64,000 nucleotides of DNA from Chiloscyllium plagiosum (lineage: Eukaryota): positions 715,805 through 779,804 of the forward strand of contig NC_057756.1 of NCBI RefSeq assembly GCF_004010195.1. Direction: 5' to 3'. This document shows, piece after piece, positions 5,487-61,698 of this stretch. A program made the translations under genes and the position numbers. A model generated the notes under the pieces. That model was not told the origin of the DNA, did no database searches, and worked only from the letters and a program-made list of their open reading frames with translations. Numbering within the stretch: position 1 is the stretch's first letter; every line of letters starts with the position of its first letter.

Positions 5487-5522
5487 AACAGCAAAAACTG
5501 ATGGACTCATTGAAAGAATTCG
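5487..5522 (+). CDS. Coiled-coil micro-exon 1 (36 nt, class A): (E)QQKLMDSLKEF
   Basis: ttattcattctAG acceptor, G|GTGAGC donor, 36 nt, open in phase 1, heptad pattern shared with the other class A exons. Confidence 0.85.
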
Positions 5523-6387
5523 GTGAGCAAAGTGCCTTTGTGTGTTCGTTAAACAATTTAATTTGTTAGCCACAGCAGAAAAATTACAGTTGAACCACCT
5601 GGAATAGAACATAAGTTAAATAACTACAACAACCAGTTTTGAACAGCAGTATGAAAGAGTTAATGAGAAATAGCCGAGTGATAATTGAATTCCCTTGTCC
5701 CACTACAGTCTGAGATAACAGGCCTCAACTACAGCCAACAATTATTCATAATATGTAATTCCGTTAGACTGTGGTTAAACATTTTTCAGTGAACATCAAG
5801 GAACGTATATCATACTGCTAAACGCCAAACGGTTCTCTCAATAAACTCAACACATTCAATAAAAATCATAATATTTGCCAATAGGGATCAGCAATATAAG
5901 CGTTGTTCACAGTATATTTGATCAGGAATCATGTTTAGTAGCAGATCAGCTTGGAGACTTGTTTCACTTCATGGTACCAAGAATGTCTCAATTGCTAAAA
6001 TCTTTGTTCTGTATGCAATTTTCTGTGTAGAGTCTTGAACACAAAAGCTACACTGTATGTTGAAACACAGACTGACTGATGCACTCTAAGATGTGCAGTG
6101 TGTAAGATGGGATGTAAAAAAAAGTTATTTAAGGAGAATGTTAAACTTCCCATTGTTAAATTGCAAGAAAAATGTGGCAAAGTCCGTCTCCATTTTCCTG
6201 ACTTACATTGCTTGCAATACATAGTTCAATTGTACTATTTTGCCATTAACACAGTGATTTTTATATGTAACTATTATAGTCAAATATGTCGTCATAATTC
6301 AGTCAAAGTATTAATCTTTTTACATGTGCATTGTGAAAATTCATCATTCTTTTTTTACTACCAAGTTGTTATTTTCACTCTTCACAG

Positions 6388-6414
6388 AAGAAAAACTGAA
6401 AGCAGCAATCAAAG
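6388..6414 (+). CDS. Coiled-coil micro-exon 2 (27 nt, class B): EEKLKAAIK
   Basis: ttttcactcttcacAG acceptor, AAG|GTAATT donor, EEKLK motif. Confidence 0.9.
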
Positions 6415-6524
6415 GTAATTGGTTTAGAGTGCCATCGTTGTACACCATAAAAACAAATGTATAGGCTCTATAAATTCATAAGATTGCAATTACTGGAAAT
6501 CTGTACTCTAACAAAGAATAAAAA

Positions 6525-7529: not shown

Positions 7530-10500
7530 TCAGTGAGGAACGAGGAATGGGGCGCCGTCGAGGAGGTAGGTTTCCCACTTTAAAAGGACTTATCTCGAGT
7601 ATCAGGTCTCAATCTGTCGGGATATGCGAAGAGAGAGGAGCGGAGTCTGCCAGGAGGTAAGTGTCCCACTTAAAAGGGACTTACTTCGAGAGTCAGGCCT
7701 TCATTTTACAGGGCAGGGAGGAGAGAGGAGCGGAGTCTGCCAGGAGATATGTCTCCCACTTAAAACGGACTGACCTCGAAAGTCATCCCTCCATTTTTCC
7801 GGAGCGATGGCTGGCGGAAGTTACACCACTGCTTTAAAAACTTACCACGTGTATAGGTGGAGCACAGGCTGAACAGGAATGAACACGGGACTGCTGAGTA
7901 AGTGAAATAATAGGTGACTCCCACCTATCCTCCTTCTCTAACGAAAAATAAAGGTTCTATGCGCCAGATTGGTAAGGTAACTAGATTTAAAAAAAAAATC
8001 TTTATTTTTTAATGGTCTCTTTGGGGATTTGGAATAGTGGGAATAGCGGTTAGAACAGTTTAATGTTGCTGCAGAATGTGGGACATAAGGGTCTCTGCTG
8101 ACTTCAGCTGTGGGAAGTGCACCCAACACCAGCTACTTGAAAACTGCAACAAGGAACTGGAGCTGGGTGAACATTGGGTCATTCGGGAGGCAGAGGGGGT
8201 TATTGAGAGGAGTCACAAGAAGGTCGTCACACCTCAGCTACAGTAAAAAAAGTAAATTATTTACAGCCAGGAAAAGCAAAGGGAGCCAGCAGACAGTGCA
8301 TGGATCCCCTGTAGCCTATCCCCTCAATGACAAGTATATCGTTTAGGATACCTTTGGGGGGGGGTGGATTTAGCAGGGTTAATCCATGGGGTGCAGGTCT
8401 CTGGCACAGAGTCTGTCCCTGTTTTTCAGAAGGGAAGGGGAATGCAGAGCAGAGCATCTGTCATTGGGAGCGCCATGGTTAGGGGAACAGACAGGAGATT
8501 CTATGGGAATGAGAGAGACTCACGGTTGGTGCGTTACTTCCCAGGTGCAAGGGTTAATGATGTCTTGGATCATGTTTTTGAGGGGAAGGGGGAGCAGCGC
8601 CAAGTCGTGGACAATATTGACACTAACGACACAGGTAGGAAAATAGATGGGGATCTAAGGCAGAAATTCAGGGTGCTAGGGTGGTAGCTTGGAATTAGAA
8701 CAAGCAGAGTTATTATCTCTGGATTGTTAACTGTGCCACGTGCAAGCAATGTGTGGAATAGGGAGAGAGGAGCGTTGAACATGTGGCTACAGCGATGGTG
8801 CAGGAGAGAGGGTTTTGGATACCCGGATAATTGGTGCTCATTCTAGGGTAGATGAGATCTCTAAAACAGGATTATCCACACGATACCAGAGAGGTCCCAA
8901 TATTCTGTGGTGCAGGAAGTGGGGGGCCAGCGGGAGTAATGTGCTAATTCACTCTATAGCACAGGAATGGAAACCTAAACTCGAATTACAGTTTCCAGGA
9001 GGTTGAGAGTATTGAGGTCTGAAATATGGTTTCAAGGTGGCAAGAGTACAATGGCAAGCAGGAAGGTGGTTTGGAGTATGTCTACTTCAAAACCAGGAAC
9101 ATTTGGAATAACGAGGGTGAACTTTAAACATGAGCTTTTACTTGGGACTTCGATACTGTAGCTACTTTGGAGGCATAAATACAGTCGGGACATGAATCGT
9201 TGTTGCAGGATCTGGGATTTAGATGTTTCAGTAAGAACAAAGAGGATGGTAAAAGGGCGAGGGGTGGCATTGTTAGTCAAGGACAGTATTAGATTAGATT
9301 AGATTAGATTAGATTAGATTAGATTNNNNNNNNNNNNNNNNNNNNNNNNNNNNNNNNNNNNNNNNNNNNNNNNNNNNNNNNNNNNNNNNNNNNNNNNNNN
9401 NNNNNNNNNNNNNNNNNNNNNNNNNNNNNNNNNNNNNNNNNNNNNNNNNNNGGAAACCCACGCAGACACGGGGAGAACGTGCAAACTCCACACAGTCAGT
9501 CGCCTGAGGCAGAAAAGACGTTTGAATACTCGTCTACTAAGTTAGTATGGGCTGAGGTTAGAAACAGGAAAGGAACGGTCACCATATTGGGAGTTTTCTA
9601 TAGGCCTACGAATACTTCCAGAGATATAGAGGAAAAGATTGAAATGGTGATACTGCATTGGAGCGAGAGCAACAGGGTAGTTGTTAGAGAGACTTTATTT
9701 TACGAAATATTGACTGGAAATACTATCGTTCAAGTTGTTCAGATGGGTCGGTTTTTGCCCAACGTGTGCAGGAGAGTTTCCTGACACAGTACATAGACAG
9801 GCCAACAAGGGGCAAGGCCACATTGGATATGGTACTGGGTATGAACTTGGCCAGGTGTTAGATTTGTAGTTAGGTGAGCACTTTGCTGATAATGACCACA
9901 ATTCGGTTATGTTTACTTTAGCAATGGAAAGGGGTAGGTACAAACCACAGAGCAAGTCATAACTGGGGGCAAGTCAAATATGATGCTATTAGGCAAGGTT
10001 TAAGATTCATAGAACGGTGAAGGAAACTTCAGGGGATGGGCACAATTAAAGTTTCTAGCTTATTCAAGGAACAGCTACTGTGTGTCCTTGATAGGTATGT
10101 ACCTGCCAGGTACGGAGGAAGTGGTCAGGTGCGGGACTCGCTGTTTACTAAGAAAGTTGAATCTGTCATCAAGAGGAAGAAGAAGGATTATGTTAGGATG
10201 AGACGTGAAGGTTCAGCTGTGGGAGCTTGAGAGTTACATGCTAGCCAGGAAAGACCTAAAGAGAGAATTAAGAAGAGCCAGGAGGAGACATCAGAAGTCA
10301 TTGGCAGATATGATCAAAGAAACCCCTAAAGCTTCCTACAGGTATATCAGGAATCAAAGAATAACGAGAGTAAGATTAGGGCCGATCAAGGACAGTTGTG
10401 AGCGGAATACAAGGAAATAGGAGAAATGCTAAATGAATATTTTTCACCGCTATTGAAACTGGAAAATGCAAAGATGTAGAGGAGAATGCTGATATATATG

Positions 10501-15305: not shown

Positions 15306-15341
15306 AAAAAAACACTTGTGAAGAATCTTTGGAAGATTTAG
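15306..15341 (+). CDS. Coiled-coil micro-exon 3 (36 nt, A): EKNTCEESLEDL
   Basis: tttttgtatttcAG acceptor, TAG|GTAAAG donor. Confidence 0.9.
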   Translation, partial: KKTLVKNLWKI

Positions 15342-16702: not shown

Positions 16703-16729
16703 AGGAAAAGTTGAAAGAAAAAGACAAAG
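16703..16729 (+). CDS. Coiled-coil micro-exon 4 (27 nt, B): EEKLKEKDK
   Basis: ttttctctgaaacAG acceptor, AAG|GTACTT donor. Confidence 0.9.
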
Positions 16730-19009: not shown

Positions 19010-19045
19010 AGCTAACAAACTGTCAAGACGAACTGAAGAATTTTG
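19010..19045 (+). CDS. Coiled-coil micro-exon 5 (36 nt, A): ELTNCQDELKNF
   Basis: cttttcctgaattgcAG acceptor, TTG|GTGAGG donor. Confidence 0.9.
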
Positions 19046-20036: not shown

Positions 20037-20063
20037 AAGAAAAGCTAAAAGGAAAAAGCAAAG
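20037..20063 (+). CDS. Coiled-coil micro-exon 6 (27 nt, B): EEKLKGKSK
   Basis: tttttactctttttAG acceptor, AAG|GTAGCT donor. Confidence 0.9.
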
Positions 20064-20287: not shown

Positions 20288-20323
20288 AATTAATCGAATG
20301 TGAAGAACGTGTGGAAGAATTAG
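20288..20323 (+). CDS. Coiled-coil micro-exon 7 (36 nt, A): ELIECEERVEEL
   Basis: cttactattccAG acceptor, TAG|GTCTGG donor; follows exon 6 after a 224-nt intron. Confidence 0.88.
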
Positions 20324-21346: not shown

Positions 21347-21373
21347 GAGGCAAACTGAAAGAAAACGAAAAAG
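21347..21373 (+). CDS. Coiled-coil micro-exon 8 (27 nt, B): GGKLKENEK
   Basis: ctttatacctaacAG acceptor, AAG|GTACCT donor. Confidence 0.88.
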
Positions 21374-23558: not shown

Positions 23559-23594
23559 AAATAACTGAATTTAAAAAATCGTTGGAGGAATTAG
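23559..23594 (+). CDS. Coiled-coil micro-exon 9 (36 nt, A): EITEFKKSLEEL
   Basis: tcttcatatattacAG acceptor, TAG|GTGAGA donor. Confidence 0.9.
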
Positions 23595-25791
23595 GTGAGA
23601 CCAAATTATTATTGTTGTCAAATGAATGTTTGCTTTTCTTCTTAAGCTTTTTGGAATAACATTACGATTGAACAAAGTGCCTGTAAATTAATGCTAGTTA
23701 AGGAATATCCCCGGTATAGTAATACAGTTTGCTTACATCAAGGATTTCCAAAAGAGAAAAGGAAGCAAGTGCCCAAAGATACTTCTGCAGCTTCCCTGCA
23801 ATTGTTTGATTTAGAGCAACAATGGTTTACATTAGCACAGCAATTGCCCTTTCATTCATAACAGCATTTTAACTTAAAGTAACAATTAAATGTACCCTCA
23901 CAAACCACGCAGGCAAAGTACAAGTCAAATTTATTTTTTAAAAGAAATAGGTTTGCCCATTTTGACTAGTTACTCTGCAGTCACCTCTACTGGACTTCGC
24001 CCAATTCTTCATGATTGTCTTCACCTCTTAAATCTCCAAGAAGCATTTATTTTGTTAAAGGAGAATATTCTCAATTGTTGTTCTTTTATCATTATTATTG
24101 TTATTAATATTTTATTATTGCCTCTGCAATATTATTTTTTATTCATGGGTCGAGAGCATTGCTGGTCCAACCGTTACTACCAATTCTAACTGCTCTACAA
24201 CCCGCACTAGTATCGTTACTTGTACAGCAGTGGTCATCGTCCACTGCTGTACAAGGTAACGATACGAGTGCGTGTTGTAGAGCAGTTAGCACAGCTAACT
24301 GTAGAGGGATATCAATATTATTATTTGTGAGACAGTTCAGAGAGCATGTTTCTGTGACTATCAAGAAATGTGACCCTGCATCGTCTTTCATTTGATAGTT
24401 CGCAGTGGTATTCTGCAGATGGTGGCCTCCCCATGCTTCTATTGCCGTTCTACTTCTAAGTTGTAGGATTTGCAGTTTCAAGAAAGCTGTTTATCGAGAC
24501 TTGTTGTACTACATCTTGAAGATCGTACATGCTGCCACAACTGTGCATTCTGAATTCACGAGATTCATAGAAGTGTCACATACTGCGCTGTATTTTATCA
24601 AATCTCATATGTTTCTTTGTTCAGTACTTTCATATATGTGCGATGTTTCCAGCCACAGACATTAAAAAGGAAAATAAAATCACCTTTATCAACCGCTTCA
24701 TCATCCTTAAGTTATTGGCACTTTGCGCTTAATGACAGTTGTTTTTTTAATTCGATATTGGATGAGTAGGTTTTAAACTTTCTTCGCATGCCAAACTTAT
24801 TGGCCTCTTGCTATTTCCTTATATCTGATTGGAGACGATGGCGACATGTTACAAGTACAGTTGACCTCGTGTTTGGTTCTTTACCACATCATGGATGCCA
24901 TCCCAAAGGTAGCCAGTTTCCATCTCTAGTGCATCGACTCCTCTAGCCTACCTAGGTTTATTACCTTTTTAAATATTACTGATAATTGTTTTGATTATTT
25001 TAGGCCTGTTGTGTTTGGCCTTACCATTTCTGACTTCTGTCGATGGATTCTTAAATAAGAAAATTTTTGCTGCTTCAAGTACAATTGACTAATAAAACAA
25101 GTCATTCCTCAGTCACATTTGCTAATGAATACACATTTTCACTACCCAAATGTTTCCCCTGTTGTTAAATCCCTAAAGGCTTTACCTCACTCTATAGCCA
25201 TAGCAATGTCTTGAGAAATTCTGATTTGATGCATATAATTAGGACATCTTGCCTTTACTTCTGAAACATTGATGTAATTTGCTTTCACTAGCCTAGACAC
25301 AAAATGATGCTGTTGTGTTCCATAATTAATTGTCAATTTTTCCTCTCGCTGTTGTTCTTTGAAGACATTCCTTACAAACTAGCTGCTTGACCAATGACAG
25401 TTTTCTAAACATGCTTCTTGTTTTTCTACCTTGTACATGTTTCCTTAATTTAGAATGTTAATATAAATGTATTAGAAGTGTTATTTAGTAAACATTTTGA
25501 AGACAAGAAAAAATAGAACTTCAGATCGAGGGGAATGCTGTTCAGTTGTTATGCAACTGTATTAACACACCAAGTAAGATATAGTTACATTGCATTATAT
25601 GCATGAAACTTCGTAGTATCTGCACCCACCGAACTTATGCGATCATGCATGGTAATGGCAATAATGAATGTCTGTAATTGTATGAAAAGAATAGATTGTT
25701 ATATTGATGTACATGTCCTTTATCCTTTAGAAAAATATGAACACATCAAGTGAATTCACAAAACCTTGACTCTTTGTGTCATCTGTTACAG

Positions 25792-25818
25792 AAGCAAAAT
25801 TAACAGAAAAAGAGGAAG
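25792..25818 (+). CDS. Coiled-coil micro-exon 10 (27 nt, B): EAKLTEKEE
   Basis: tctttgtgtcatctgttacAG acceptor, AAG|GTATGT donor. Confidence 0.9.
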
Positions 25819-27287
25819 GTATGTTATTTAGACTTATAGAACGAAACTATTAACGCATGATTATTGCAACCCCACTTACTTTTTACCATCAAGCCAACAT
25901 GATCAGTCGCATCACACTTTAAATTTATATATATATATATATATATCAACATTTATCATCGAAAAGAGTTTTAAAGTGCAGATATTGCAGCGAAGATAGA
26001 ATTAAATAGTTGCATGTTAGATAAATGATTATAATCTGCAAATAAATTGGAAGCACAATGAGCTTAGTTTTGTTTGGATCAGAACTGAACATCACCGTTG
26101 TTGTCATGACTTGAATTGTTTTGTGTTGTTATATGATCTAATAATTTTCACTCACTGGGATATACTGATACTCGTGCCCGGCAAATAAGGTATCCACACA
26201 TCAAACGTGAAATGTTCGTCAAGTTACAGATTCATATACAGTGCCATCCTCGAAAAGCTTTGGCATCCAAAAGCAGAATTGCGGAACAAATTTGTTATAA
26301 AGTCTAACATTCACATTCATCCGTATACTTAAACATGGAAATTACTGCAAGAAGGTCTTTACCTTCATTGCTATGATAAAGGGTCCCTTGTCAGAAAATG
26401 TTAACTTGCTTTTCCTGCATAGGTGCTGACAGGCCTGCTGAATTTCTCCAGCACATTCAGTGTTCGTTTTTTAATTTCTGGCATCTGCAGTACTTTATTG
26501 GTGTTATTTTCATTTTTCTCCCAACGTTTATGATTGTATCAGCGTGAAGGAGATTTGTGACTGGCTTGAAATCTGAGAAACAGGCAGCCAGATATTTTGG
26601 CTTCCGTCTCATAGATCGATGCGAATCATCAGGACTGTACAAATCTTTCATATAAAAAACAGTTGTAACATATCAAATTCAGTGTACATCACTGCAGAAT
26701 TTTGAAAAAAAAATCCTTGCTACTCGAATCCAAGTAGACTCGCCACAAGGTAAATAATAAGCAAAATCAGGAAAAATCCAAGATTCGGACACGTATTGTT
26801 TATGTAGACCACCAGCTCTGTCCCTGAACGAAAAAAAATGGTGACTCCAGAAAATGTTTGGAGGATAATAACATTCTCCTTTTCAAATGATATTCCACTC
26901 TTTTCAAAGGAGCATTGAAGGAAACTCTTTGATTGGTAAATAGTCAACAGTATTGGTCACTTCCATTAAAATAATGACATACGGATTTGGAGAAGAAACG
27001 TAGGTAAATGAGAAATACCTATCGAGAAGCCACCAGGGAAATACGACAGGAATATCAATCAACAATTTGATCCGGATAATAGTCCTACAGGAATCCTTAA
27101 ACGGATTGTCATTAATGCCTACTCAGTTTCTAAGATATATTATTGCAAAGAGAAATCTCGTAAGAGGATGTGGTATTTATTGACGATCACCATAGTCATT
27201 ACGAGAATTTGTTGAAGACGTTGTTTATGCAAACTCCCCATATCTCACAATAGTGCATGAAATCTCGTGCAGAATCTTTTCTCCCAC

Positions 27288-27342
27288 AGATATACAAAAT
27301 TATATGCCTACTGTAAGATATACAAAATTATATGCCTACTGT
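27288..27342. repeat. Perfect local tandem duplication, period 28
   Basis: agatatacaaaattatatgcctactgt at 27288-27314 and 27316-27342. Confidence 0.9.
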
Positions 27343-28399
27343 TTGAAAAGAACAATTACTTAAGAGAAGACAGGTTTTAAAATGCAATATTGCATTTAAA
27401 AAAAATCTCTGTTGGTGTGCATACTACTGTCAGTATAGTATAGCATACTTCAGGGAAGCAACAAACGTTCTCTGTCAGGTTTCTAATGTTTGCATCACAA
27501 TACTCCGCTGGTCTTCTCTGAGCAGTCTGTGCAGAACTTTAGTATTGTGAATAATTTGTTCACATGCAATTTCCAGTGCATTCTGCAACCAACCGTGTTG
27601 GAAGTTGTAAAGTCGAGTGTTCCCTTTGCTGTTGTCTTCAAAGTTTGTTTGGGATTGGTTCCAATTGACATTACACTCAGCATGAATAGACAAAGCTGCA
27701 CGGTCATGTTTATGCAGTTATGTGCCCAGATACCCAAAGACCCTGGAATATCAATATTTTGCCATAATTTGATATCTATCTGTATGATCTCACTTCCCAG
27801 TGAGGCAAAGTTAATGTACGTAGTTGATTTAAAATTTTCTGATGGTAATGATAGCGTTTTTCTTTGTAGTGGAAGGTTTGCTATAGGCTTGCCTCCAGTT
27901 TTAATCATCGATTGTTGGTCTTATCGAGTTAATGTACAACATCAACTTTGGGACCAGTATTAACATATTGGTGGCTTTGACTTGGTGCATGCACCAAGTC
28001 TTCAGTCCATAACTGGTCACTGGTGCATTCAGTCAAACTGAGCCATTTGCACAATTTTAAGTTAACTGTGTATCAGAAATTGTCTCCAATTTTCACAAAT
28101 GGAATTATAGAAAGTGCTGATTTTGGTTTCAAATGCATAGCAGCAGAATAAGAGGCATTTATTTCGGAGAAGCTAATGACCAAGAACATGGAATGTTACA
28201 ACCAATAGCAAACATCTGGTTTACAAATGACCTTAATGAATGGAAATCTATCAACATCACCTGGTCCAGTTGACATGTAATTCCAGGATCCACAACAATA
28301 CATTTAATTCTTAACTGCTCTTTCAAATCACCTCACAAGCCACTCAGTTGTATTGATCAGCAGAACTGCTCAAGAAAGCAATGAAACCAATGGACCATT

Positions 28400-31300
28400 T
28401 GGCATCGACCTAGATACCTTAAACGATAATGGATAAAACAGCCTTATAACACTTCAAACTCATCCTTATCACCATCTGGGGCTAGTGCAAGAAATGCAGA
28501 GTTGTTTCACAGACTAACGAAACTGTCATATTTCACCAATAATGTTCCAGACAACAACATCACGATCCAGGCTATGACTTATTCCATCAGCAGAACACTC
28601 TCAGTGGAGGTGGCAGGTCAATAATATGCAGTCGGGCATGTGTGAGTCCTCAACATTGACTCTTGATCCGATTAAATCTCATGGTTTAAGTTCAAATATT
28701 GACAAGGAAATCTCCTGCTGATTACCCCGTAATGGCCTCCTTCAGCCTATGATTATGTATTCCAACATGTTGAAAAACACTTGGACGAAGCAGTGAAGGT
28801 GGGAAGGGCGGAAAATGTACACTATATGGGGATATAAGTGTCCATTACCAATAGTAGCTCAGTAGATGTGTTACTTATCAAGTTGGTCAGGTGTTGAAGG
28901 ACATAGCTGTGAGACTGGGTGAGTGTCAGGTGGGAATGGAACGAGGTGGGGGGGTGGGGGTGGGGGTTGGGGAGAATGAAACGCACTTGACTTCGTCCTT
29001 TTCAATCTACTGACTTTTAATAATCTGTACATGACAGTATCAGTAAGTGTGGCCACTCCACCGTCGTTGAGGAGAAGACAACCCTGCCTAAAAATTTAGA
29101 ACACACTGCATCATGTTATGTGGCATCATAAAATTGCTGGATGGCAAAAAACTTCAAGGCGATCTTGCAACTTAGGACCGGGAGTCCATGAGGCATTGCA
29201 GGCCAGCGACAAGAGCCAAATTATACTTTGACACGATCTGCTAAGTGATAGGCAGTTGCATCGCATACTAAAGAAATGTTTGCATGCAAGTGGATCAATC
29301 TTTGTTCAATGGTGAATTTAGGATGGCACAGAGGAGCAAACCAGGCATATCTAACACTGATATGTCAACTTGATAAAGCTACCAAACAACATGGCTTGCG
29401 TACCAAACATCAAAACATCAAGTGATAAACAAAGATAAACGATTTCATAGACAACAAATCGGATATAAGCTTGGCATTCCTGCCAGATAGAGTCATACAT
29501 GGAGGAGGTCAATTAACCAACTAACTGGACGAAGATGCTTCACAAATATCTCCATTAACGGTAATGTCAAGAAGTGTGGTGCTGGAAAAGCACAGCCAGT
29601 CAGGCAGCATCCGAGGAGCGGGAGAGTCGACGATTCGAGCATAAGATCTTCATCAGGTATGTGAGTGTAGAGTGGTTCTGAGTTGGAGATTTGGATCTGG
29701 AAGGAGGTGGGGAAAGGGAGAAACGAAACTGGCGAAATTGGCATTGACCCCGTTTGGTTCAAGGATCCCAAGATGGAAGATGAGGTATTCTTCCCCCAGT
29801 CATTGGGTGGCAAGAATTTGGCATGGAGGAAGCCCAGTGCTTGTTTGCCCTTGGTGGAGTGTAGGGGCAATTGAAATTTTCACCCACAGGGCGGGTGTCC
29901 GTATGCCCCAGTTAGGTTTTTTGAATCTTTCTGCAAGTTGGCATTCAGTCTCACATCGAGAGGAATGGCCAGAGTAGATGAGGTATTTGTAGGTGCAGGA
30001 AAATTTCTGCCGAATTTATTGCCTTGCAAAGAGGTGAGGGGAAAGGTGTGGGTACAGGGTTTACAGCCCTTGTGGTGGTGGGTGCCAGATGTGAAGTTTG
30101 GGTTGGTGGCAGGCGTGGATATAACGCAGAAGTTGCAGAGGGAATGGTCGCTGCAGAATGCTGAAAGGGATGGGGAGGGAGATATATCTCTGAAAGTCAT
30201 GGAGGAGGTGTAGGGCGTCCCAAATATTTGTGGGGGGATCCTGGTCCAAAGGAGACAAATTTCTCAAATCTGACCACTCCGGTTGACCAGTTGCCTTCTC
30301 CTGCTTCTGCCCAACTGAACTAATCTGAGCACAGCTTGACACCGTCTTGCTCCTCCTTAGTCCAGGATCTCCCCCCATACATTCAGGATACCACCCAAAC
30401 CCTCCACCTCCTCTATGACTTTCGGTTTCCCGGCCCCAATGCTTCATTTTCATTCTGGACATCCAGTCAATATACACATCCATCGGCCATGATGAAGGCC
30501 TAAAAGCTCTCTGTTTCTTCCATTCACGAAGGGCCAAACAGTACTCTACGACTGACCCAAACATTTGTTTGGCTGAACAGGTCCTCAGCTTTAACAATTT
30601 CTGCTTAGACCTCTCCCACTTCCTTCAGACCAAAGGGTTAGCCATGGGCACCCGCATGGGGTCCACCTGTGCATGCCTCTTCATCTGGTATATGGAAGAG
30701 CCTTCTTCCACAGCTACACTGGCACCATTCTCAACGTTTTCCTCCGCTACATTGATGACTGTATTGTGCCACCTCGTTCTACCGTAAGGAGGTTGAACAT
30801 TTCATCAATTTCATGAACACTTTCCACCCTGACCTCAAGTTCACCTGGACTATCTAGGACATCTCCCGCTCCTTCATGGACTTCTCCGTATTCATTACTG
30901 GCGCCCAATTCAACACGGGCATCTGCTTAAAATCCACTGACTCCCACAGCTATCTGGATTACACATCGCCCCATCCCCTCCTGTAATAACGCTATTCCTA
31001 CTTCCAATTTCTCCACTTCTGTCGCATCTGCTTTGAGCGGGATCAATTCCACTCCAGAACATCTCAGATGGCCTCCTCCTTCAGGGACTGCAATTTTCCC
31101 TCCCACGTGGTCAACAATGCCCTCCAGCGTATCTCCTCCAATCCCGTATCAATGCTCTTGAACCCTACCTCTCCAATCACAACATAGACAGAACACCCCT
31201 TGTCCTCACCTTCCAAATCACCAACCTCCTGATACAATGCATCATTATCTGGCATTTCCACCAGCAACAGTCAGATCCCACCATCAGAGATTTATTACCC

Positions 31301-34934: not shown

Positions 34935-35135
34935 GCTAACTATGGGACTATTTAGTATACTCAATCCTAATCTGTGCATTTCGGACTTTGGGAGAAAGTC
35001 ACTGCACCCAGGAGAAAACCATTAAGACACAATGGGAGAATATGGAATCTCCATACAAGAAGTCACCTATGGCTCGAAAGGATATTTGGTCCCTATCTCT
35101 GTGAGGAAGTGGGGCTAAACACTGAGACACCATAT
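34935..35135 (-). mobile_element. Diverged V-SINE (HE1-like)
   Basis: ggactttgggagaaagt...cacccaggagaaaacc...ggggctaaacactgagacacc matches the reverse complement of the SINE. Confidence 0.6.
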
Positions 35136-35898
35136 CTCTCACTTTAATTGTAAAATTGAAAACCTTTTGTCCAGTATGAATGTCGAATGGCATTAGTGAT
35201 GTTATCCAGGGCATTAGTGCTATCTCGAAGATGCACACGAGCATATTAATAAACATTTTTGACAGCAACATCCAAAGCAAGTAGTCAGATAGACAAGATA
35301 AGTATATTAATATTTTTATCATGAACCAAAACTTCCAATCTAATATATATTCTGATATGTTGAGTAGTAACATGAATTTGCGTGTCTGTTTTAAAGATTT
35401 GAATTGACTGCTGCATTTCCTTCATAAAACTGGCAGCTTCTGTTCAAAATCACTCGATGAGTTATGACACATTTGGTAGGGTCGACAGTCATAGCTCTGG
35501 CATCATGCGCCATCAGAGGCAGAACACACCTCTGATGCTCTAACATCTTGAATATCCCAGCTGTTGTTAAGAAGTGGAACTACACATCACCTCTCAAACA
35601 CTTTACTTACCATCCTACTAGAAGATTGTGTTTTTTCTTGTTGGACTATACAAGATATTTGTGTTTACCCCACCCACGACCAATGGTATCGCTTTGTGTG
35701 TGAAAACTTACAATGAAAGGATCAGAACTCGTTGCTTAATATGCAATATGAAGGAAAGAAGAGTGATTGTCATTTGCTGGCTTTATCTGTAACTTGCGAA
35801 TTCGAATAAAATATATCAATTACAGGGAACAAAACATATCCAGTGATATGCCCTATTGGCATAAACATTCAGATTTAACTGCACCTCTTCTCCTGCAG

Positions 35899-35925
35899 AA
35901 TCAGAACTTGAGCAGAAAGCTGAAG
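35899..35925 (+). CDS. Coiled-coil micro-exon 12 (27 nt, B): (K/E)SELEQKAE
   Basis: cctcttctcctgcAG acceptor, AAG|GTAAAA donor, Leu at position 4 and Lys at position 7 as in class B. Confidence 0.85.
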
Positions 35926-36591: not shown

Positions 36592-36627
36592 AAATAGCAA
36601 ACTTCAACAAGAAGATGAAAGATCTAG
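36592..36627 (+). CDS. Coiled-coil micro-exon 13 (36 nt, A): EIANFNKKMKDL
   Basis: ttttctttttcAG acceptor, TAG|GTGGGT donor. Confidence 0.9.
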
Positions 36628-37861
36628 GTGGGTAGAGATTAAATCAATACAGAAAACATCACAATAAGCGCATTAGGTAATTACATGTATTATTGTGAAG
36701 CATTAATTTTACAGTAATGCCAAGAGGAAACAGGAAATCTTATGGATGGACATGAAATCAGAAGATGCAGCAAGGTGAATGAAGTATATCAGAAGGAGAT
36801 GCCATATGATTGTCATTTAATAATGGTGAAGTGCAGATATCTAGTACTGGTGAATGAGATACATGCGAGATATTGCATGAAATGGTTCTATCAGCGAGAA
36901 GAATTTTGCATGTAGGGCATACCTCCTCTGCTTCTTCTCTCCTGTGCCTATGGTAGGCAAACACAGCCTTTGTATGGATTCTTCATTAATATCTGTTCAT
37001 CTACCAATTCATAAAATAAGTTGTGTTATCACAATCTTCCAGCAGTACAACTGTAAAGAATAAATGATACTCATTCACTGAGAAACAATATACTCCATGA
37101 TCATCTAGACTCGTAGGTATCTCTGTAAATCGCTATGAATTTAGAGCTTATCAATTTTTCTCATTTTTTATGAATATTTGTTCGTTACAAATTACCTGCT
37201 GCAGGTTCCCACGTTTCAAATGTGTCCTCCTACATTTGAAATTTACCTGATTGTGACACGGTCTTCATTGTCAGGAGATTAAATAGCATAATTTCTATAT
37301 AAAAGTTTCAGTTCGTCTTACATATTCCTCAAATATACATTTCAATTAAATCTGGCGGAATTAATATCGCATATTTTATGTTATGAGCAGTAAATTTGTT
37401 GTTGCATTTTGTAATGCAACTTGCCAAGAAAATATATGATGATACATTCACATTGTAATTTCCTTCAAGAATTGTCAGTTGGCATTCTTCTGTCATTGTG
37501 TTCCTGTTATATATTATAATGATTCTATATCCATATATAAGAACTTGTTGAGCAGCAACACTTAATATTTAAACCTGTCCCATGACAATTGGCGTCAAAA
37601 TGATAGCTCCATTTCAATATATTATCCATGATCAAATTACGAACATTTTGTCTTTAAATGACAGAATATTGATAGATGTCACTTAGAATGTTTAACTTTA
37701 ATTTACCAAGAGCGCCCCCAAGCACTGTTCAACAGAACTATTAATTCACAGTGTGTGTTTCAGACAAGAATTGATCCATGTATTCATGAGGCAATGATTA
37801 ATGTTAAATTCATAGTGAAATGTACGTATATTGACGGATATGTTACTGATTTAATTCACAG

Positions 37862-37876
37862 AACAAACAGTAAATG
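37862..37876 (+). CDS. Micro-exon 14 (15 nt, class C): EQTVN
   Basis: atttaattcacAG acceptor, ATG|GTAAGT donor; occupies a class B slot; same size and attcacAG context as exon 18. Confidence 0.7.
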
Positions 37877-38099
37877 GTAAGTATGAGTTGCATGAGACAA
37901 CTTGGTTCCTAATAAACATGGAAAATATTTCTCAAAAGTTCCTCTATTAGTTCTCATATACTGGTCACCAAATACAGTTGTGTGTTCTCCGTTTTTACAT
38001 TATAATCTTACCCAGAATTGAGGCCTGTAAGCAAACTGTGAATTCAAAATGATAGTTACTTTTGAATCCCCAAATTCAATCATCACATCATTGACTACG

Positions 38100-40432
38100 T
38101 GCATGCATCCCCCCTCCTAAATTATCTGATCTCTAATATTCCCATTATTTCTCTTTGCATCAGAACCATACTGCTTTCCTTCAATACCTTCCAGATGACA
38201 CAACTTTCTGTGAATGGCTTGCTTCGTGTGTCATAATATGTCAATGGAAAAATCTGTGTTATATTTTCGTAATTGCGAGTCTTTGTAGACTTAATGTATT
38301 TATGACGATCTGGCACTTTTTCCTTAAGCAACCTCCGATTATGTTGAACATTATGGTGCAGCCTTTTAGGTTCCATTGTGTTTTCCTTTGCAACTCCATC
38401 AAAATTCACTGACGTATCCCGTGTTCGTACATCAATCTTCGCAATGCTTTTCTTAACCAATCAACACTGTAATTTTTGTGACCTACTTTATTGCAGTGAA
38501 AACACCGAAGGTTTTTAATTACTCTTTCCCGTTCAGGAGTTTCATTTTTAGACTGTGACGTGTTATACTTAATATCATCAACGAGATCTCCCTTTCCATT
38601 TCCACGTGAGGAATTATCTTTTCCCTAATTTCTGTCGCTCATGGATTGAAATTGACGTTGGAAGCCAGGCTTTCATTCATGAATACACTCATAATCATCA
38701 GGAATTTCAGCTGCTAACCTTGCCGTTTTAACTCTCTGCTCTTCCACATGAGTTCTCACCACTTCAAGAAATACGTTTTTTGAACTCCTCCAAAGTAATC
38801 GTTTCTCTAATATTACCAAATGTTTGATCTATTTGAATGCCAACTATCAAAATTCTTTCGTTTGAACCTTTCAAACTCAATGACCAGGGTCCCTCCTTCG
38901 ATTTTTGAAACATTGTCTATAGACTTCTGGCACAAGCTCATACGTACCGAAAGTGGGTTTCTTCGCCTTCTCATAACCCCCAGATATATTCTCTGATAGT
39001 GATGCAAATACTTCACTCACTCTATCTACCTGCTTTTTTGGTTCAACAAACCCGACATGTTGACTGGCCATGACATTTGTTTCGCCACCTCCTCAAACAA
39101 GATGAAAAAGTCTTCTACATCTTTCCCATGAAATTCAGACAATGCTTGGATGTATTTAAACAGATCCCAACCAGGCCTTTGGCTGCCGTGGGTTCGCTTA
39201 TCCTCACTATCTCCCTGACCAAGCTTACTTTCAGCCTTCATCTCCATCCATTTCAGCGAACTTTCCTCTCTTATTGACAATTTCTGCAGTTTAAACTCTG
39301 TCTGTTTCCCCCCCTCTTCTCTGTTTCTCCCTTTCTTCTGTTTCTCCATTTCTTCTCTCATATTTTCCTTCAGTTCTGCTGAAGCAAATTTGTCACTTTC
39401 TTTTCCCTCTGCTTTTAATCATAATTCAAAGTTTCATTTCCTTTCTCTTTCTTTTCTGCCTCTAATTCAAGCTGCTTACTTTTTAATTAAATTTCAACCA
39501 TTCCCAAAGATTCTGATGGCATTTCCAGCAAATTTAAATGCTGAGCTATTGTTGTTATTATCTGCCCTTTTCTCTAAAATGGAGTTGATTCCAACTCTAG
39601 CTTGTCTGTCATTTCCAGCAGCTTTACCTTGTTCACCTGTTTAAAGTCCCCAGTCACTTCTTCCACATCCAGGAAACTCGCAGTGACTGAATGAGTCATT
39701 ACTACATAACGACCTGCATAAACCAACTGAATCCAACACCCGAAAATAAAGATACTAACATCTCCCACTCGTTGTCTTTGATCCGACAGCCCCAATTCTA
39801 ATTGGATCTGTAGAAAAAATCTCTCCAAAAGTCGCCAGTCTGTTATGGACCAGGCCAGATCCCTTCCACACGGTTCAAGAAAGTAGCTCAGATCCTAAAT
39901 CAAATATGTAGATATAAAATAAGTATTTCAGGAGTGATGCAGCTAGTAAAACCGCACAGCTTTAAACAAAACAGAATTTATTTAAACACAGCAAATGAAA
40001 CACTGACAAAAGAAAGCAGAACGTAGAGTAACATAAGTCACGTGATAACTCAATTGACTGTCACAACTTGATGAAGTAGTCGTTGCTCTCCCCACAACAT
40101 CCCAGAAACACACCATTTGCAAAAGATAAATTCAAGCGCAGGCTCTCAAAAGCAGATCAGATTTCAGAGAGAAAGTTCAGGGAAGAACTTTGTCGGAGCT
40201 TGGAAAATCTTTTTGCTGTATTTGCTTCTCCAGGACCCCAACAGTTTTCTGAATGCTTGGTGCAAATAAACCAAGCTAGAAAACCATAACATAAATTGGG
40301 AGAGCGGTCCACTTTCCTGCCATTGTTTCAAAGTAGCCACTTCCAGGTATATCAGAAACACTGCCTTTATGATCCCTCTTGTAAAATAACAAGGACAGCA
40401 ATAAACTTGTTAAAAGGACAGCATTACCTCAT
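38100..40432 (-). mobile_element. Truncated Gypsy-type LTR retrotransposon: 5' LTR (about 39841-40432), PBS-like site and decayed gag
   Basis: gag-like remnants 'KDVEDFFILFEEVAKQMSWP' and 'YELVPEVYRQCFKN'; LTR end tgttatggaccaggccag at 39841 is followed on the minus strand by gacTGGCGAC; LTR similar to 50323-50897. Confidence 0.75.
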
Positions 40433-40434
40433 AA

Positions 40435-41050
40435 TGAATACTGCTTTTGGCTAGCTTTCACGTATTGGCCAGTGCCTTGAGTATAGGAGTCGGGATGTCC
40501 CTTTGCGACTGTGCAAGACGTTAGGAAGTTCTCTTTTGGAATATTCAGTTCAGTTGTGGCATCCCTGCTATAAGAAATTTGTTGTGAAACCTGAAAATGC
40601 TGAAAAGCATTTTGCAACCGTGTTTCCAGATTTGGAAATTTTGAGTATGGGGAGAGGTTGAATAGACTGCACTTATGTTCCCTGGAGTGTTACACTCTGC
40701 GTGTTGATCTTATTGAGGTTTATGAAATCATAAGGGACATGCCAAATCTTTTCTTTAACCAGAGATAGGGAGTCTAACAGTAGAGGGCATGGTTTATGTT
40801 GATGGGAGAACGTTTTAAAGGCGATTTAACATGGAGTTTGATGCTTGCATGGCATGAGCAGCCAGATTAAGTGTTGGAGGCTCGTACAATTACAACATGT
40901 AAAATATATCCGGAAGGTTCCTTGCCTAGGAAGGGTTCAGCATGCTATTGGCTAAATGCTGGCGAATGGACCGTATTACTTTAGACATCTGGTCAACATA
41001 GACAAGGATCAAAGGGTCTGTTTCTGTGCTGCACTTCTGGATGACTCCAC
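40435..41050 (+). mobile_element. Decayed CR1 3' fragment
   Basis: Resembles the reverse complement of 56461-57100 (gagtataggagtcgggatgtc..., gggtctgtttctgtgctg). Confidence 0.65.
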
Positions 41051-42859
41051 AATGAAGGGCAACTCATTTAAAATGAAATATCCACAAAATAGAAAGAGAA
41101 CATCAATTCAATTGTCCACTTCATTTTAGATGTTCATTCTCAGTAGTAAATTTTGTCTGAACAGCAATTCACGCAAATCACTGATTGCATTTACCAACTA
41201 TTGTTATCCATCAAATTGTATAGTAGCATTGTAGGTGGCACAGATCGATGCACAGTGATCTTTGAGAGTGATTAAGGTTTTGGTCCAGTGTTGCAAAATG
41301 AAGATTATTGTATTCTCTGTCTGAAACCGTGTGCATGTTTAAGGCAGGTTGCAGATGGTAGCCACAGCCATAAATACATTTTTTATTTTGTAAGTAGGTA
41401 CGTCAGTTAGCAAATTGATGGCATGCTAGTTCTCTATAGGTGCACACTGTGAATTCCTTTCCAAGATCGTTCCTTGCCTAATTTTCTTGATCTTAACATC
41501 TCATTAGTAACCATGATTATAGAAATGATGTGCAGTTCTCCAGAATTAACTGGAGTGCTTATACGGCAGTTGCATTCAATGAACTTGAAAACATTAAGAA
41601 AGAAAACTAAATTGATTAGCATACATTATCTATAACATTCACTCTTTTCACTGTTGTTGGAAATTTACAAGACCGAATACCATTTACGTGTTGCATTGCA
41701 GTAATGTACTGGAAACTTCCAATACAAACTCGATTACCTGGAATGAGAAAAGTTTGTCTACTTCACGAACTAGACCAGGTGCAAGATCCACAAAAGTCCA
41801 CGCATCATAAATCACCTGGAAACATTATGTTTGACATCTCTATACATCAACTGCAGCAGTCCAGGAGAATAGTTTAATAAAACTTTTCACCAAGCCAACT
41901 CTGATCACAAGTACGTAATTAGCTAGTAACCAACCCCACATCGCAAGAATAGTAAAATAAGAAATAATCGAAAATCTCAGCGTGTTCCATTTTCATATGC
42001 GAAAACTTGAAAAATGTTTTGACAAACATGCATTCCCTATCCTTTTCAGGTAGAAGTCACAGGTGTTAGCGTTATTGACATTACGATCTGCTGATTATGG
42101 CGCAGAATGCAATCAGGCCGTGGTATTTTTTGAAGTTATAAAGATGTTAAATGAAGATGACACAGCTATCAGGTCTGTTGAAATACCTCTGGTTTTATAT
42201 TACTTCTTGACGCTATATGGACTCATCAGGATAGTTGTGAGCATTCTGTTTTCCACTGAATCTTTGTCTTGCAAATTTTAGGTGGCCATTGAAGGAGTAC
42301 AGAAACTTGTCATTAATATCAGAATATGAACGTACGACGTAGGAGCATGAAACTGCCCTGCCATTTAGTGAGACCATGACTGATCTGATTTTACTCTAAA
42401 CACCACATTCGTATCCACCTCCTAATATATTTTGCTCACCAAAAGCTCACCTTCGTTGTAGAACAAAATCGATAATGGTGGCTTTCTTGTTGCCCCAAAG
42501 ACTTAAAACATTCAGAGAATATACAGAGTAGAACTTGTTGTGCCTTAAACGGACGACTTCTTAGTTTTAAGCTGTGACTTCATAATATTATCAACGTGCT
42601 CCCTATGAAATCCTCGCAGAAACCATGACCTTTTATATTTCTACATTTGAAAAGTCAGAAACCCCGCCTGTTCAGGCTTCCTTCATTACATAATTACGCA
42701 AATTCATGTGTGTAACTCACCCAATCGTTTTCTTTTTTGCTGTTGATGCCAGAAGTGGTCCTGACGATTTCCTACGCCTTGATAACATCCTCAATTCACG
42801 TATCTGCAATTCTTTGTTCTCAGATTAACGAAGATATATTATCTTTTGTCTGATTGCAG

Positions 42860-42895
42860 ATCTGAACAACTGTCAAACAGCACTGAAAGATTTGG
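42860..42895 (+). CDS. Coiled-coil micro-exon 15 (36 nt, A): DLNNCQTALKDL
   Basis: cttttgtctgattgcAG acceptor, TGG|GTGAGT donor. Confidence 0.9.
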
Positions 42896-43488: not shown

Positions 43489-43515
43489 AAGAAAAACATA
43501 AAGAAAAAGAAAAAG
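43489..43515 (+). CDS. Coiled-coil micro-exon 16 (27 nt, B): EEKHKEKEK
   Basis: Long polypyrimidine tract ending cgtgtAG, AAG|GTTAAC donor. Confidence 0.88.
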
Positions 43516-47405: not shown

Positions 47406-47441
47406 AGCTAATCGACTGTCAAGAAGTTCTGAAACAATTTG
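47406..47441 (+). CDS. Coiled-coil micro-exon 17 (36 nt, A): ELIDCQEVLKQF
   Basis: cctcttcatttttcAG acceptor, TTG|GTGAAG donor. Confidence 0.9.
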
Positions 47442-51626: not shown

Positions 51627-51641
51627 AAGCTACAAAACAAG
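51627..51641 (+). CDS. Micro-exon 18 (15 nt, class C): EATKQ
   Basis: tttcttcctccctgaccgattcacAG acceptor, AAG|GTGAGC donor; occupies a class B slot. Confidence 0.75.
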
Positions 51642-51896: not shown

Positions 51897-52396
51897 NNNN
51901 NNNNNNNNNNNNNNNNNNNNNNNNNNNNNNNNNNNNNNNNNNNNNNNNNNNNNNNNNNNNNNNNNNNNNNNNNNNNNNNNNNNNNNNNNNNNNNNNNNNN
52001 NNNNNNNNNNNNNNNNNNNNNNNNNNNNNNNNNNNNNNNNNNNNNNNNNNNNNNNNNNNNNNNNNNNNNNNNNNNNNNNNNNNNNNNNNNNNNNNNNNNN
52101 NNNNNNNNNNNNNNNNNNNNNNNNNNNNNNNNNNNNNNNNNNNNNNNNNNNNNNNNNNNNNNNNNNNNNNNNNNNNNNNNNNNNNNNNNNNNNNNNNNNN
52201 NNNNNNNNNNNNNNNNNNNNNNNNNNNNNNNNNNNNNNNNNNNNNNNNNNNNNNNNNNNNNNNNNNNNNNNNNNNNNNNNNNNNNNNNNNNNNNNNNNNN
52301 NNNNNNNNNNNNNNNNNNNNNNNNNNNNNNNNNNNNNNNNNNNNNNNNNNNNNNNNNNNNNNNNNNNNNNNNNNNNNNNNNNNNNNNNNNNNNNNN
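51897..52396. other. Assembly gap (500 N)
   Basis: Run of N. Confidence 0.99.
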
Positions 52397-54405: not shown

Positions 54406-54441
54406 AACTAACCAACTGCCACTCAGCTCTAAAAGAATTAG
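54406..54441 (+). CDS. Coiled-coil micro-exon 19 (36 nt, A): ELTNCHSALKEL
   Basis: ttttctgaattgcAG acceptor, TAG|GTGAGC donor. Confidence 0.9.
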
Positions 54442-54811: not shown

Positions 54812-54838
54812 AAGACAATCTCAAATCAAAAGTTAAAG
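54812..54838 (+). CDS. Coiled-coil micro-exon 20 (27 nt, B): EDNLKSKVK
   Basis: ttatgtgttttaaacAG acceptor, AAG|GTAGCT donor. Confidence 0.88.
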
Positions 54839-56204: not shown

Positions 56205-56240
56205 AGCTCGAAGCATGCAAAGAAGCAGAAAAGGAATTAG
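56205..56240 (+). CDS. Coiled-coil micro-exon 21 (36 nt, A): ELEACKEAEKEL
   Basis: tttttgcgtttcaatttgccAG acceptor, TAG|GTACTA donor. Confidence 0.9.
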   Translation, partial: SSKHAKKQKRN

Positions 56241-59400: not shown

Positions 59401-60950
59401 CTTAATAGTTTAAATCCTCCTGAGCAGCTCTAGCAAATCTCCATGTCAGTATATTATTCCCCTTCCAATTCAGATGCAATCTGTCCTTCTTGTACAGATC
59501 ACTTCTACCCCAGAAGTAATTCCAATGATCCAGAAATGTGAATGCTTCCCCCTTACACCAGCTCCGCAGCTATAGATTCATCTGCTCTATCCTCATATTC
59601 CTACCCCGACTAGTTCGAACACCTGGAGTAATCCAGATATTACTACTTTTGAGCATCTCATTTTAAAATTCCTGCCTCACTCTCAACATTCTACCTTCAG
59701 AATCTCATCCTTTTGCCTTCCAATGTCATTGGTTCCAATATATACAATGACCTCCTGCTGGTCTCTCTCACCCTTGAGAACATTCAGCAACCCTTTCAGA
59801 GATGATCCTGTTCCTGGCACGGGGGAAGGCAATGCACCATTCAGATTTTTCTCTGCTGGCACAAGAAACGTCTATATGTACCTTGGATTAGGGAGTCCCC
59901 TAACATAATTGATCTCTTGTAACCCGACGTACCCCTCATTGCATTAGAGTCAGTCTCAATACCTGGAACTTGGCTGTTCTTGCGACATTCTCCTCAGAAT
60001 CATTAACCACCTACAATTTCCAAAACAGCATATTTGCTTGAAATGGGGATAGCCACAGAAGACTCCTGCACTACCTGCCTATCTCTCTTACCTTACCTGG
60101 AGTTAATCCATCTATATGACTGTATCTACAACTTTTCTCCCTTCCTATAACTGCCATTCATCACATCCCCTTGCTCTTGTAAATTCTTCATTGTCTTTAG
60201 CTGTCTCTCCGACTGATCCATTCGATCTGATAGGATTCACAATCAACGGCATTTATTGCAGATATAATCCTCAGTAACACGCAAACTCTCTCTGAACTCC
60301 CACATCCGACAAGAAGAGCATATCACTCCACTAAAGGCCATTTTTGCTTCTTCCAATCTACAGACCTAGAAAATTGCACTATATCATTCCTCTACAACAA
60401 CACTGCTTCAGGTTAACTTAGTAATTTTGGCTTATATCTTTAAATTTGATCAAGAGACATAGCTCAATAAAGCATATAATCGAGAAAGAACCCGCTCTAC
60501 TCACTACTACACACTTTCTGCAAGCCCACACTTAAACATATTTATTTATCTGTTTCTGTACTGTGACCTCTCCCAAACAGGTTCCGTCAAGATTAGTTAT
60601 GAATTTCACTGTTTGTTAATTTTCCCAGACACACTCTTATGTCCAGCGATACATGAATTCAAACAGCAAAGGCAGTGACTCCGCAGGTTCACTGCTGCAT
60701 CAGTTAACAGTGTGGGTTTCTGCACTGACCTCACTATATTCTGCCTTTGTCTGTTCCTCTCCCCTTTAAAAGGGCTATTCTTTGACTTCCTTTTTTCTCG
60801 AAATTTTCAAAACAACGCACTAGCATATAAAGCAGTAATTGATGCTCCTGGAATTCGTAGAAATCACCTCCAACACCTAAAATACCTCAAAAAAGTACAA
60901 TCAGTCTGTCTCAACCAATCAAATATTGTCATATTCAATGCTCAATCTCC
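56461..60950 (-). mobile_element. Near-full-length decayed CR1-type LINE
   Basis: Minus ORF2 pieces 'WVELRNKKG', 'VMVGNFNFPNID', 'KSPGPDQVYPR', 'SGVPQGLMLGP...KFADDT'; ORF1 begins near 60341 with Cys-rich MAFSGVICSSCRMW; (ctatga)-type 3' tail at 56461-56476; 5' boundary approximate. Confidence 0.9.
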
Positions 60951-61671
60951 TGTCAACAATTAGTCTCGAATAAAATGTTTTTCGGTTCTGTAAGTTAATT
61001 AAATCACTGGATGTAATCTTATGGTAGCATCAAGCTAATGGAAGATCCCTAGATAAATATCCACAACAACTTACGGCAGGTGCCATGGGATAATTCAGTG
61101 ATGAAACCTGTTACGTAGTTAGAAGCTACATTTTGAAGTCCAACTACAGCAATACATAGCATAGTAATATCCATCATGAAATGATCCAATATTAAATTTT
61201 CCAGCATGCACCAAAACCATCCAGTTAGAGAGGGAGAGATTTTTTTTCAGTGAGATGACAAGAATACATTGGAGATCCTGTTGTTATAATCTATATGTTA
61301 CAATATGTATATCAAGCACATCAATTCTGTCTCCTGGTGCGTGTGATATGCTTGGTATATATGGATCAGTTTGGTGCTTATAACACAAAGCATCGACTTC
61401 TTCTGCTGTTGGGATATATTTTGAATGTGGTTCCTCACCCTACCATCCATGGGTCTAATTTTGTTAACAATGGGTCTGCGTTGCCACCGGAAATTCATAA
61501 ATAAGGAACGAATTGCATCACTATGCACGCATTTGTCTTAACATTATAGAGAATTATAGGCAGGTTGCTATAAAGTAATACTTCTGCAAATTATGTTTTA
61601 TATAAATGTATCTTTAAGGATGCAAACGCGTTAAAAATTATTTAATCATCCTATTTTATTTCTTCTAAAAG

Positions 61672-61698
61672 GAGAAAAGCTGGAAAGCAAAACGAAAG
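61672..61698 (+). CDS. Coiled-coil micro-exon 22 (27 nt, B): GEKLESKTK
   Basis: ttttatttcttctaaaAG acceptor, AAG|GTAATA donor. Confidence 0.87.

Follow-up and report, generated by a model that had tools for sequence, protein, structure and literature searches.

Paired 36- and 27-nt micro-exons with a coiled-coil heptad pattern and a downstream B30.2 exon in the bamboo shark Chiloscyllium plagiosum

The locus discussed here raises the question at which level a coiled coil constrains the exons that encode it, and it offers a natural test of whether coiled-coil selection operates through duplication blocks, through splicing or through the two together. It lies in a 64,000-nt stretch of the Chiloscyllium plagiosum genome (contig NC_057756.1, forward-strand positions 715,805 to 779,804), referred to as the window. 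The original prediction held that a 36-nt exon together with a 27-nt exon encodes 21 residues or exactly three heptads, that this pair is the unit of structure and duplication, and that pairwise-coupled skipping would tune the length of a rod. Our preferred reading, to which we give a probability of about 0.7, is a soluble coiled-coil rod with a B30.2 domain at its tip; the rod would have grown by duplication of frame-neutral blocks with those of 7n residues favoured, and it would contain built-in kinks, with mostly constitutive splicing. The 36/27 pairing itself likely stems from tandem duplication, with selection preserving the register, and not from paired splicing.

Micro-exons of the window and their heptad pattern

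Two families of short AG...GT segments were first revealed by a repeat search. A profile scan of the plus strand placed ten exon-like segments of 36 nt (A) and nine of 27 nt (B) between positions 5487 and 61698, all bounded by AG...GT, with scores of 33-60 compared with a minus-strand maximum of 12 in the window. All of them are of phase 1-1, so that skipping any one would keep the frame, as had been claimed. None of the 19 contains an in-frame stop, whereas the two alternative frames have stops in 15/19 and 6/19. A length-free scan added two 15-nt exons (c), at 37862 and 51627, that the original prediction lacks; we regard these as candidates of lower confidence. Along the gene, six such 15-nt exons score at least 17 on the sense strand and none does on the antisense strand, and the order A-c-A is also present in one paralogue. 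The 21 exons are as follows (window positions and strand; found by the profile scan unless stated otherwise):

5487..5522, +, 36-nt exon A (register g to d); the series extends upstream to about -250 kb
6388..6414, +, 27-nt exon B (register e to f)
15306..15341, +, 36-nt exon A
16703..16729, +, 27-nt exon B
19010..19045, +, 36-nt exon A
20037..20063, +, 27-nt exon B
20288..20323, +, 36-nt exon A
21347..21373, +, 27-nt exon B
23559..23594, +, 36-nt exon A
25792..25818, +, 27-nt exon B, closes the strict A/B run
35899..35925, +, 27-nt exon B2 (second subtype), straight after a B, +2 break
36592..36627, +, 36-nt exon A
37862..37876, +, candidate 15-nt exon c flanked by A exons, +3 stammer-like break; length-free scan, lower confidence
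42860..42895, +, 36-nt exon A
43489..43515, +, 27-nt exon B
47406..47441, +, 36-nt exon A
51627..51641, +, candidate 15-nt exon c flanked by A exons, +3 break; length-free scan, lower confidence
54406..54441, +, 36-nt exon A
54812..54838, +, 27-nt exon B
56205..56240, +, 36-nt exon A
61672..61698, +, 27-nt exon B

Their order is ABABABABAB-B-A-c-A-B-A-c-A-B-A-B, with A/B alternation at 15 of the 20 junctions compared with 8.6 by chance (p=0.001). A further candidate at 23865 has an in-frame stop, a poor donor and only 12-17/27 nt identity to B; it was lost on retraining and is not counted. No Rfam family was found in the window.

If the split codon is taken as residue 1, which reproduces the numbering of the original prediction, the residues of the 21-residue unit largely fall as it had described. 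In the window, position 2 is Leu or Ile in 8/10 units, position 9 is Leu in 7/10 (with one Val, one Met and one Glu) and position 16 is Leu in 8/9, in agreement with the claim of mostly Leu/Ile at these three positions. The Cys, Phe or Leu expected at positions 5 and 12 occurs in 10/10 units each, but at position 12 it is always Leu or Phe and never Cys. Position 19, the third d position, is indeed usually Lys (7/9 in the window and 43 of the 72 27-nt exons gene-wide), which would result in a weaker core every third heptad. The Glu residues at positions 1 and 13 are probably for the most part dictated by the splice junction codon.

Periodicity was assessed by Fourier and register tests, including a Viterbi test in which the register of the A exons is partly built in by training. 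Since a duplicated 21-mer alone already yields period-21 structure, the 21 columns were permuted as the null. The column hydropathy profile peaks at a period of 3.5 with a power of 5.0 compared with a permuted mean of 1.05 (p=0.004; gene-wide p=0.005), which supports three heptads per 36+27 pair with a and d positions at 2, 5, 9, 12 and 16. The first ten exons, a strict A/B run, have their peak at 3.505 (p=0.001 compared with shuffled exon orders), and a strict run of 18 A/B exons has a period of 3.500, with 0/2,000 shuffles as high; this periodicity in strict A/B runs argues for the coiled-coil reading together with its a/d assignment. A exons span g to d and B exons e to f. Among 44 A+B units, attractive and repulsive charge pairs stand at 22:5, 7:9 and 15:1 at the three g/e' positions, which would favour a parallel coil at two of them.

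The exact mapping of exons onto heptads stands for the ten-exon A/B run and is not strict beyond it, where the 15-nt exons and a 27-27 junction break the register. Register is kept at 17/20 window junctions; the breaks are +2 at 25792->35899, +3 at 37862 and +3 at 51627, and the power at 3.5 over the whole window is not significant (p=0.12, peak 3.44). Missing exons as the source of such breaks were rejected for gap-free introns by an exon search there: the intron 25819-35899 gave no convincing missing exon (three weak sense compared with three antisense candidates), and the interval 36628-42860 none other than the 15-nt exon. At the third break, a 500-nt N gap (51897-52396) could conceal an exon. 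Without the 15-nt exons, the A-A junctions would still break register, by +5. The accessible text of one source describes a +3 as a stammer taken up by a short 3-10 segment, and a +2 insertion (nine residues) as forming beta-layers in parallel trimers, the alpha/beta coiled coils (PMC4786415); compared by eye, the B2 exons resemble the LxxKAD motif given there.

The gene-wide series, its B30.2 exon and its relatives

In 800 kb of flank, the micro-exon series spans from about -250 kb to +276 kb (window coordinates extended), and the window is likely the middle of a series of ~530 kb with ~145 micro-exons and ~1,450 residues. Inside this span, 134 calls with a score of at least 17 are sense and two antisense. 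The exon list (72 of 27 nt, 57 of 36, six of 15, five of 21 and five other, 145 in all) consists of 137 calls at a score of at least 16 and eight added by hand, with one length corrected. Spliced in silico, it yields 1,447 predicted residues with no stop and only two Pro, and 89 of its 144 junctions are A/B compared with 56.6 by chance. Register is kept at 107-112 of these junctions, leaving 32-37 breaks; the commonest is +2 (11-12 cases), and the B-B2 junction recurs at 61672, 103636 and 150868. Some of the breaks, for example nine cases of +5, may represent missed or gap-hidden exons. The following features lie downstream (extended window numbering):

67101, B2 exon downstream of the window
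274016, 275015 and 276180, three 21-nt exons before the B30.2 exon
278715-279235 (L062:4715-5235), terminal B30.2/SPRY exon, phase 1, Pfam SPRY E=1.7e-16

The B30.2 exon begins 2.5 kb after the last 21-nt exon and is 98% identical to Chiloscyllium punctatum chiPu_0007878; the C. punctatum model consists of the B30.2 exon plus six residues. Its best PDB matches are BTN3A1, then TRIM58, pyrin and TRIM21. An identity as triadin was considered and dropped once this exon was found. A search for RNA data sets containing the B30.2 stretch listed none, and mapping of four read sets to L062:1-9000 gave no RNA depth on the B30.2 exon (X5 and X7 matched repeats only, X6 gave nothing and X1 behaved like DNA), a result without bearing on expression. 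From order and phase in the genomic DNA, we infer that the array and the B30.2 exon belong to a single transcript, which would reach from roughly -250 kb to +279 kb.

Alternatively, the 530 kb could be divided among several shorter genes, or the array could be in partial decay, with only some of the exons in use. The short database models of relatives (202-460 aa) and one B copy of only 26 nt would fit such a situation. Against it, none of 109 exons, profile-selected without a stop filter although from seeds that are themselves stop-free, has an in-frame stop, compared with 90 and 53 in the other frames. Furthermore, no terminal exon was found inside the span and no other B30.2 among the 150 of 269 candidates scored there, and short models would be expected if gene finders miss exons of 15-36 nt. 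We therefore consider this alternative very unlikely and retain a single long gene.

Four close paralogues of the B30.2 occur in the genome (59, 43, 35 and 37% identity), and in all four examined 27/36-nt phase-1 exons lie upstream of the same B30.2 subtype (30, 20, 7 and 12 sense calls compared with 2, 0, 0 and 0 antisense). In a B30.2 tree of 33 rows, the paralogues group with skate, ray, catshark, basking shark and chimaera proteins in a cartilaginous-fish clade (support 100/99; a branch comprising 13 labelled rows and P0066), separate from shark BTN1A1-like and TRIM sequences. The models in question are unnamed coiled-coil-B30.2 proteins, which join heptad segments to the same B30.2 subtype:

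XP_055510696, skate
XP_038668997 and XP_038672306, catshark
XP_069775384, ray
XP_042191566, chimaera
GCC29436, bamboo shark

Although short (178-460 aa), these models contain 9- and 12-residue modules that match bamboo-shark exons. Among the 22 predicted exons of paralogue P4, five match catshark model P0176 and eight match ray model P0169 (p<0.02), which independently supports reading such segments as exons. The five relatives' models scanned with Pfam all have SPRY and two a weak PRY, the only domains above or close to the Pfam thresholds, with no RING, B-box or Ig match and no transmembrane segment. Database names such as 'TRIM39/58/69-like' and 'A33-like' would reflect B30.2 similarity only. 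Searches for longer relatives (302-2000 or 652-2000 aa), which were weak, returned only TRIM/BTN/NLR-type or unnamed B30.2 proteins.

Another possibility is that the array encodes the cytoplasmic portion of a butyrophilin/BG-like membrane protein, or else a TRIM coiled coil, with Ig/transmembrane or RING/B-box exons hidden in gaps or lying farther upstream. Heptad exons followed by B30.2 are the butyrophilin layout as far as the accessible text of the sources goes (PMC4046983, PMC6790196), the PDB matches of the B30.2 exon point in the same direction, and small N gaps are present upstream. However, 84 plus-strand ORFs of at least 58 aa across the 5' region gave no match to Ig, RING or B-box, and no transmembrane exon was found among ORFs of this size, small assembly gaps being present there. 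The sole strong match in the region is the neighbouring 7TM gene that closes it at -287 kb. Likewise, the N-terminus of paralogue P4 was not found, with no Ig, transmembrane, RING or B-box exon among 49 upstream ORFs, and catshark model P0176 opens directly with repeats matching the first exon of P4. Together with the separate B30.2 clade, these findings make a hidden N-terminus of this kind improbable.

No start exon could be singled out among many candidates. Upstream Ly6/uPAR-like exons were set aside as gene start because two 7TM genes, one on the same strand, stand between. Skate model P0163 begins with a signal-peptide-like segment, which we did not take as genuine because by reading it resembles intron read-through; several other N-termini of relatives' models look similar, judged from the sequence that precedes their first module. 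The searches yielded no exon for a signal, a transmembrane segment, Ig or RING, and the product of the proposed soluble rod gene would therefore likely be cytosolic. Its chain would most likely self-associate in parallel, probably forming a dimeric coiled coil like BG/butyrophilin tails, and could act as a long spacer or scaffold displaying clustered B30.2 domains to a partner. With a rise of 0.1485 nm per residue in a coiled-coil helix, the helix would measure about 215 nm if all exons are used.

Duplication blocks and splicing

How the register could be maintained in such a rod depends on the blocks that are added or removed. No single exon of the window (0/21) encodes a multiple of seven residues, which is consistent with the claim that neither a 36-nt nor a 27-nt exon does so alone, whereas 15/20 adjacent pairs do. 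The further claim that only skipping a pair keeps the register is correct in so far as singles fail and pairs succeed in these numbers, but too narrow: B+A is equivalent to A+B in this respect, and the register is also kept by 27+15 and by a 21-nt exon alone.

These counts are the main argument for a splice-tunable ruler, in which coupled skipping of a 36+27 pair would adjust rod length without loss of register. The A/B alternation far above chance and the copying of an A-intron-B block as a unit, with one copy decayed in both exons, could be read in the same way. On the other hand, the isoform models of three relatives contain five internal deletions (isoforms differing at the N-terminus only were left out), of 9 and 7 residues in the chimaera, 6 and 9 in the ray and 9 in the catshark; none of the five equals 21 residues and only the 7-residue one keeps register. 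Catshark isoform X2 drops a 9-residue block alone and retains the adjoining 12-residue exon. Moreover, the register is already broken in the gene's own exon order at 32-37 places, introns within pairs are no shorter than those between pairs (median 2,003 nt compared with 2,280 nt, p=0.47), and 30/145 exons have a NAGNAG acceptor, the use of which would shift the register by one residue. Pair-coupled splicing as a means to tune rod length is therefore not supported by our data and we consider it unlikely, but as the isoforms are predicted models of other family members, the idea is weakened and not formally refuted for the gene of the window. In the accessible text of the literature, single-exon skipping, including the loss of a heptad, is described for macaque BTN3A (PMC6790196), and the alternative splicing reported for chicken BG is intron read-through (PMC5938342).

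The duplication history argues for blocks of several kinds. An A-intron-B block with homologous introns is present in three copies (-98355, -87201 and -77171); in the first, B has only 26 nt, and the combination of a weak A acceptor with this 26-nt B in one copy might mean that both exons are being lost together. A cassette of ten exons, 37862..67101, repeats at 87254..112929 with a score of 11.9 compared with a null maximum of 8.7 in 200 permutations, and single 21-nt exons were duplicated together with their flanks. Similarity among A exons is hardly related to that of the adjacent exons (partial rho 0.03 at +1 and -0.03 at -1, and 0.10-0.18 at offsets 2-4), in a test limited by the shortness of the B exons. 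Thus, the pair is a duplication unit as originally claimed, but one among several.

According to the proposed mechanism, unequal crossing-over would lengthen the B30.2-tipped rod by adding intron-bounded blocks. All such blocks would keep the frame, and those of 7n residues (36+27, 27+36, 27+15 or 21) would also keep the register and hence be favoured. Kinks would be built in where B-B2 (+2) and A-c-A (+3) junctions recur, and splicing would be mostly constitutive with occasional single-exon skips.

Comparison with known coiled-coil and B30.2 systems

TRIM-B30.2 proteins share with the bamboo-shark array a coiled coil followed by PRY-SPRY, but neither RING nor B-box was found in the relatives' models scanned or in the upstream DNA searched. 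Guinea-pig enterophilin-1, a mammalian protein, is a soluble heptad-repeat rod of about 30 heptads that ends in B30.2.

The closest parallel in exon structure is chicken BG, for which the accessible text of the sources describes a long coiled-coil tail encoded by many small exons with split first codons and Cys in the tail (PMC4046983, PMC5938342), the exons being of 21 nt (some 18 or 24) with one heptad each and 13-36 in number, varying by duplication (PMC4046983). As described there, the likeness to our array comprises the small split-codon coiled-coil exons, an exon number driven by duplication, the Cys residues and a heptad spanning two exons. In contrast, BG combines Ig-V and a transmembrane segment without B30.2, while the shark array ends in B30.2 with no Ig/transmembrane exon found, and its pairs of 36+27 nt hold three heptads in about 145 exons. 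Butyrophilins (BTN/BTNL), as far as covered in the accessible text, likewise place a terminal B30.2 exon behind very short heptad exons (PMC6790196, PMC12841164), similar to the three 21-nt exons here, but only a few heptads behind IgV-IgC-TM; the shark array has about 200 heptads, no Ig/transmembrane exon found and a separate B30.2 clade. Traits of both families are therefore found in the shark array: small phase-1 heptad exons (mostly 36/27 nt, five of 21) and a putatively linked terminal B30.2. For cartilaginous fishes, the accessible portion of PMC12841164 treats only standard butyrophilins, and our literature search, outside of which most subscription journals fell, found no description of a coiled-coil-B30.2 family in this group.

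Since the mapping of exons to heptads is known from chicken BG and butyrophilins, the principle is not new. New are the size of the array, its 36+27 module and the absence of Ig/transmembrane or RING exons from the regions searched. The significance of the locus lies in a putative half-megabase gene with a two-exon, three-heptad module and breaks recurring at fixed exon combinations, and in a family that is present in databases only as short, misnamed models. It is conceivable, if rather doubtful, that cartilaginous fishes make soluble B30.2-tipped rods of ~200 nm from an alphabet of 12-, 9-, 5- and 7-residue exons, in which register-keeping blocks would set the length, 9+9 and 12+5+12 would be hinges, possibly beta-layers of the type of bacterial trimeric fibres, and tissue-specific block inclusion would set the reach of the B30.2 domains.

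For the ray protein, an AlphaFold2 model of a single chain (9-sequence alignment, mean pLDDT 75.9, pTM 0.45) predicts helices at residues 3-53, 62-147 and 158-195, followed by a beta domain.

Cysteines in the predicted core

Besides the exon lengths, the cysteine residues of the whole rod gene also follow the module of 21 residues that is encoded by one 36-nt exon (A) and one 27-nt exon (B), as 40 of the 45 fall at just three module positions: 24 at residue 5 of the A exon, 7 at residue 12 of the A exon and 9 at residue 7 of the 27-nt exons. All three correspond to heptad position d in the standard register. Judged from the sequence, cysteine pairs facing each other along the predicted core could become disulphide-linked or serve as metal ligands.

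Doubtful exon copies

A B-like segment at window 23865-23891, located 270 nt downstream of the A exon at 23559, carries an in-frame stop and a poor donor, and is possibly a dead exon copy, or else a chance resemblance. Upstream of the window (negative and larger positions extend its numbering into the flanks), the A exon at -98355 has a weak acceptor and is followed at about -97,990 (L011) by a B copy with a length of 26 nt, so that either the pair is in decay or the assembly is wrong here. Two 27-nt exon calls at 247366 and 247479 are separated by merely 86 nt, and their high flank scores are partly an artefact because the flanks overlap.

Genomic surroundings

Four 7TM receptor genes that resemble one another are clustered around the rod gene, on both sides of it, and we take them to be GPR139-like.

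7TM receptor genes around the rod gene (window numbering, strand)
-328k, minus strand, 7TM receptor gene
-308k to -287k, plus strand, 7TM receptor gene
+341k to +343k, plus strand, 7TM receptor gene
+392k, plus strand, 7TM receptor gene

Further upstream, two Ly6/uPAR-type domains in phase-1 exons lie on the same strand as the rod gene at -357,756 to -344,600 (L045-L046), with three of four pieces matching Pfam weakly (E 0.0007-0.02). At +415k to +428k (L075-L076), a gene presumably to be named Tectonic-like matches DUF1619_N (E 9e-9) and has a low-complexity repeat as its N-terminus.

On another contig of the bamboo shark genome (G000:C37), ordinary B30.2 exons are densely clustered at about 27.5-34.4 Mb and 9.1-9.5 Mb, and the same contig harbours the rod-gene paralogues P4 (22.2 Mb) and P5 (20.7 Mb).

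Decayed endogenous retrovirus remnants, some matching gag, integrase and env and others resembling these, were found in L047 (-337k to -333k) and L135-L138. Within the window, a 90-nt tandem repeat of 2.4 copies (7561-7797) heads a decayed LINE-like stretch, presumably of CR1 type, which reaches to about 12,000.
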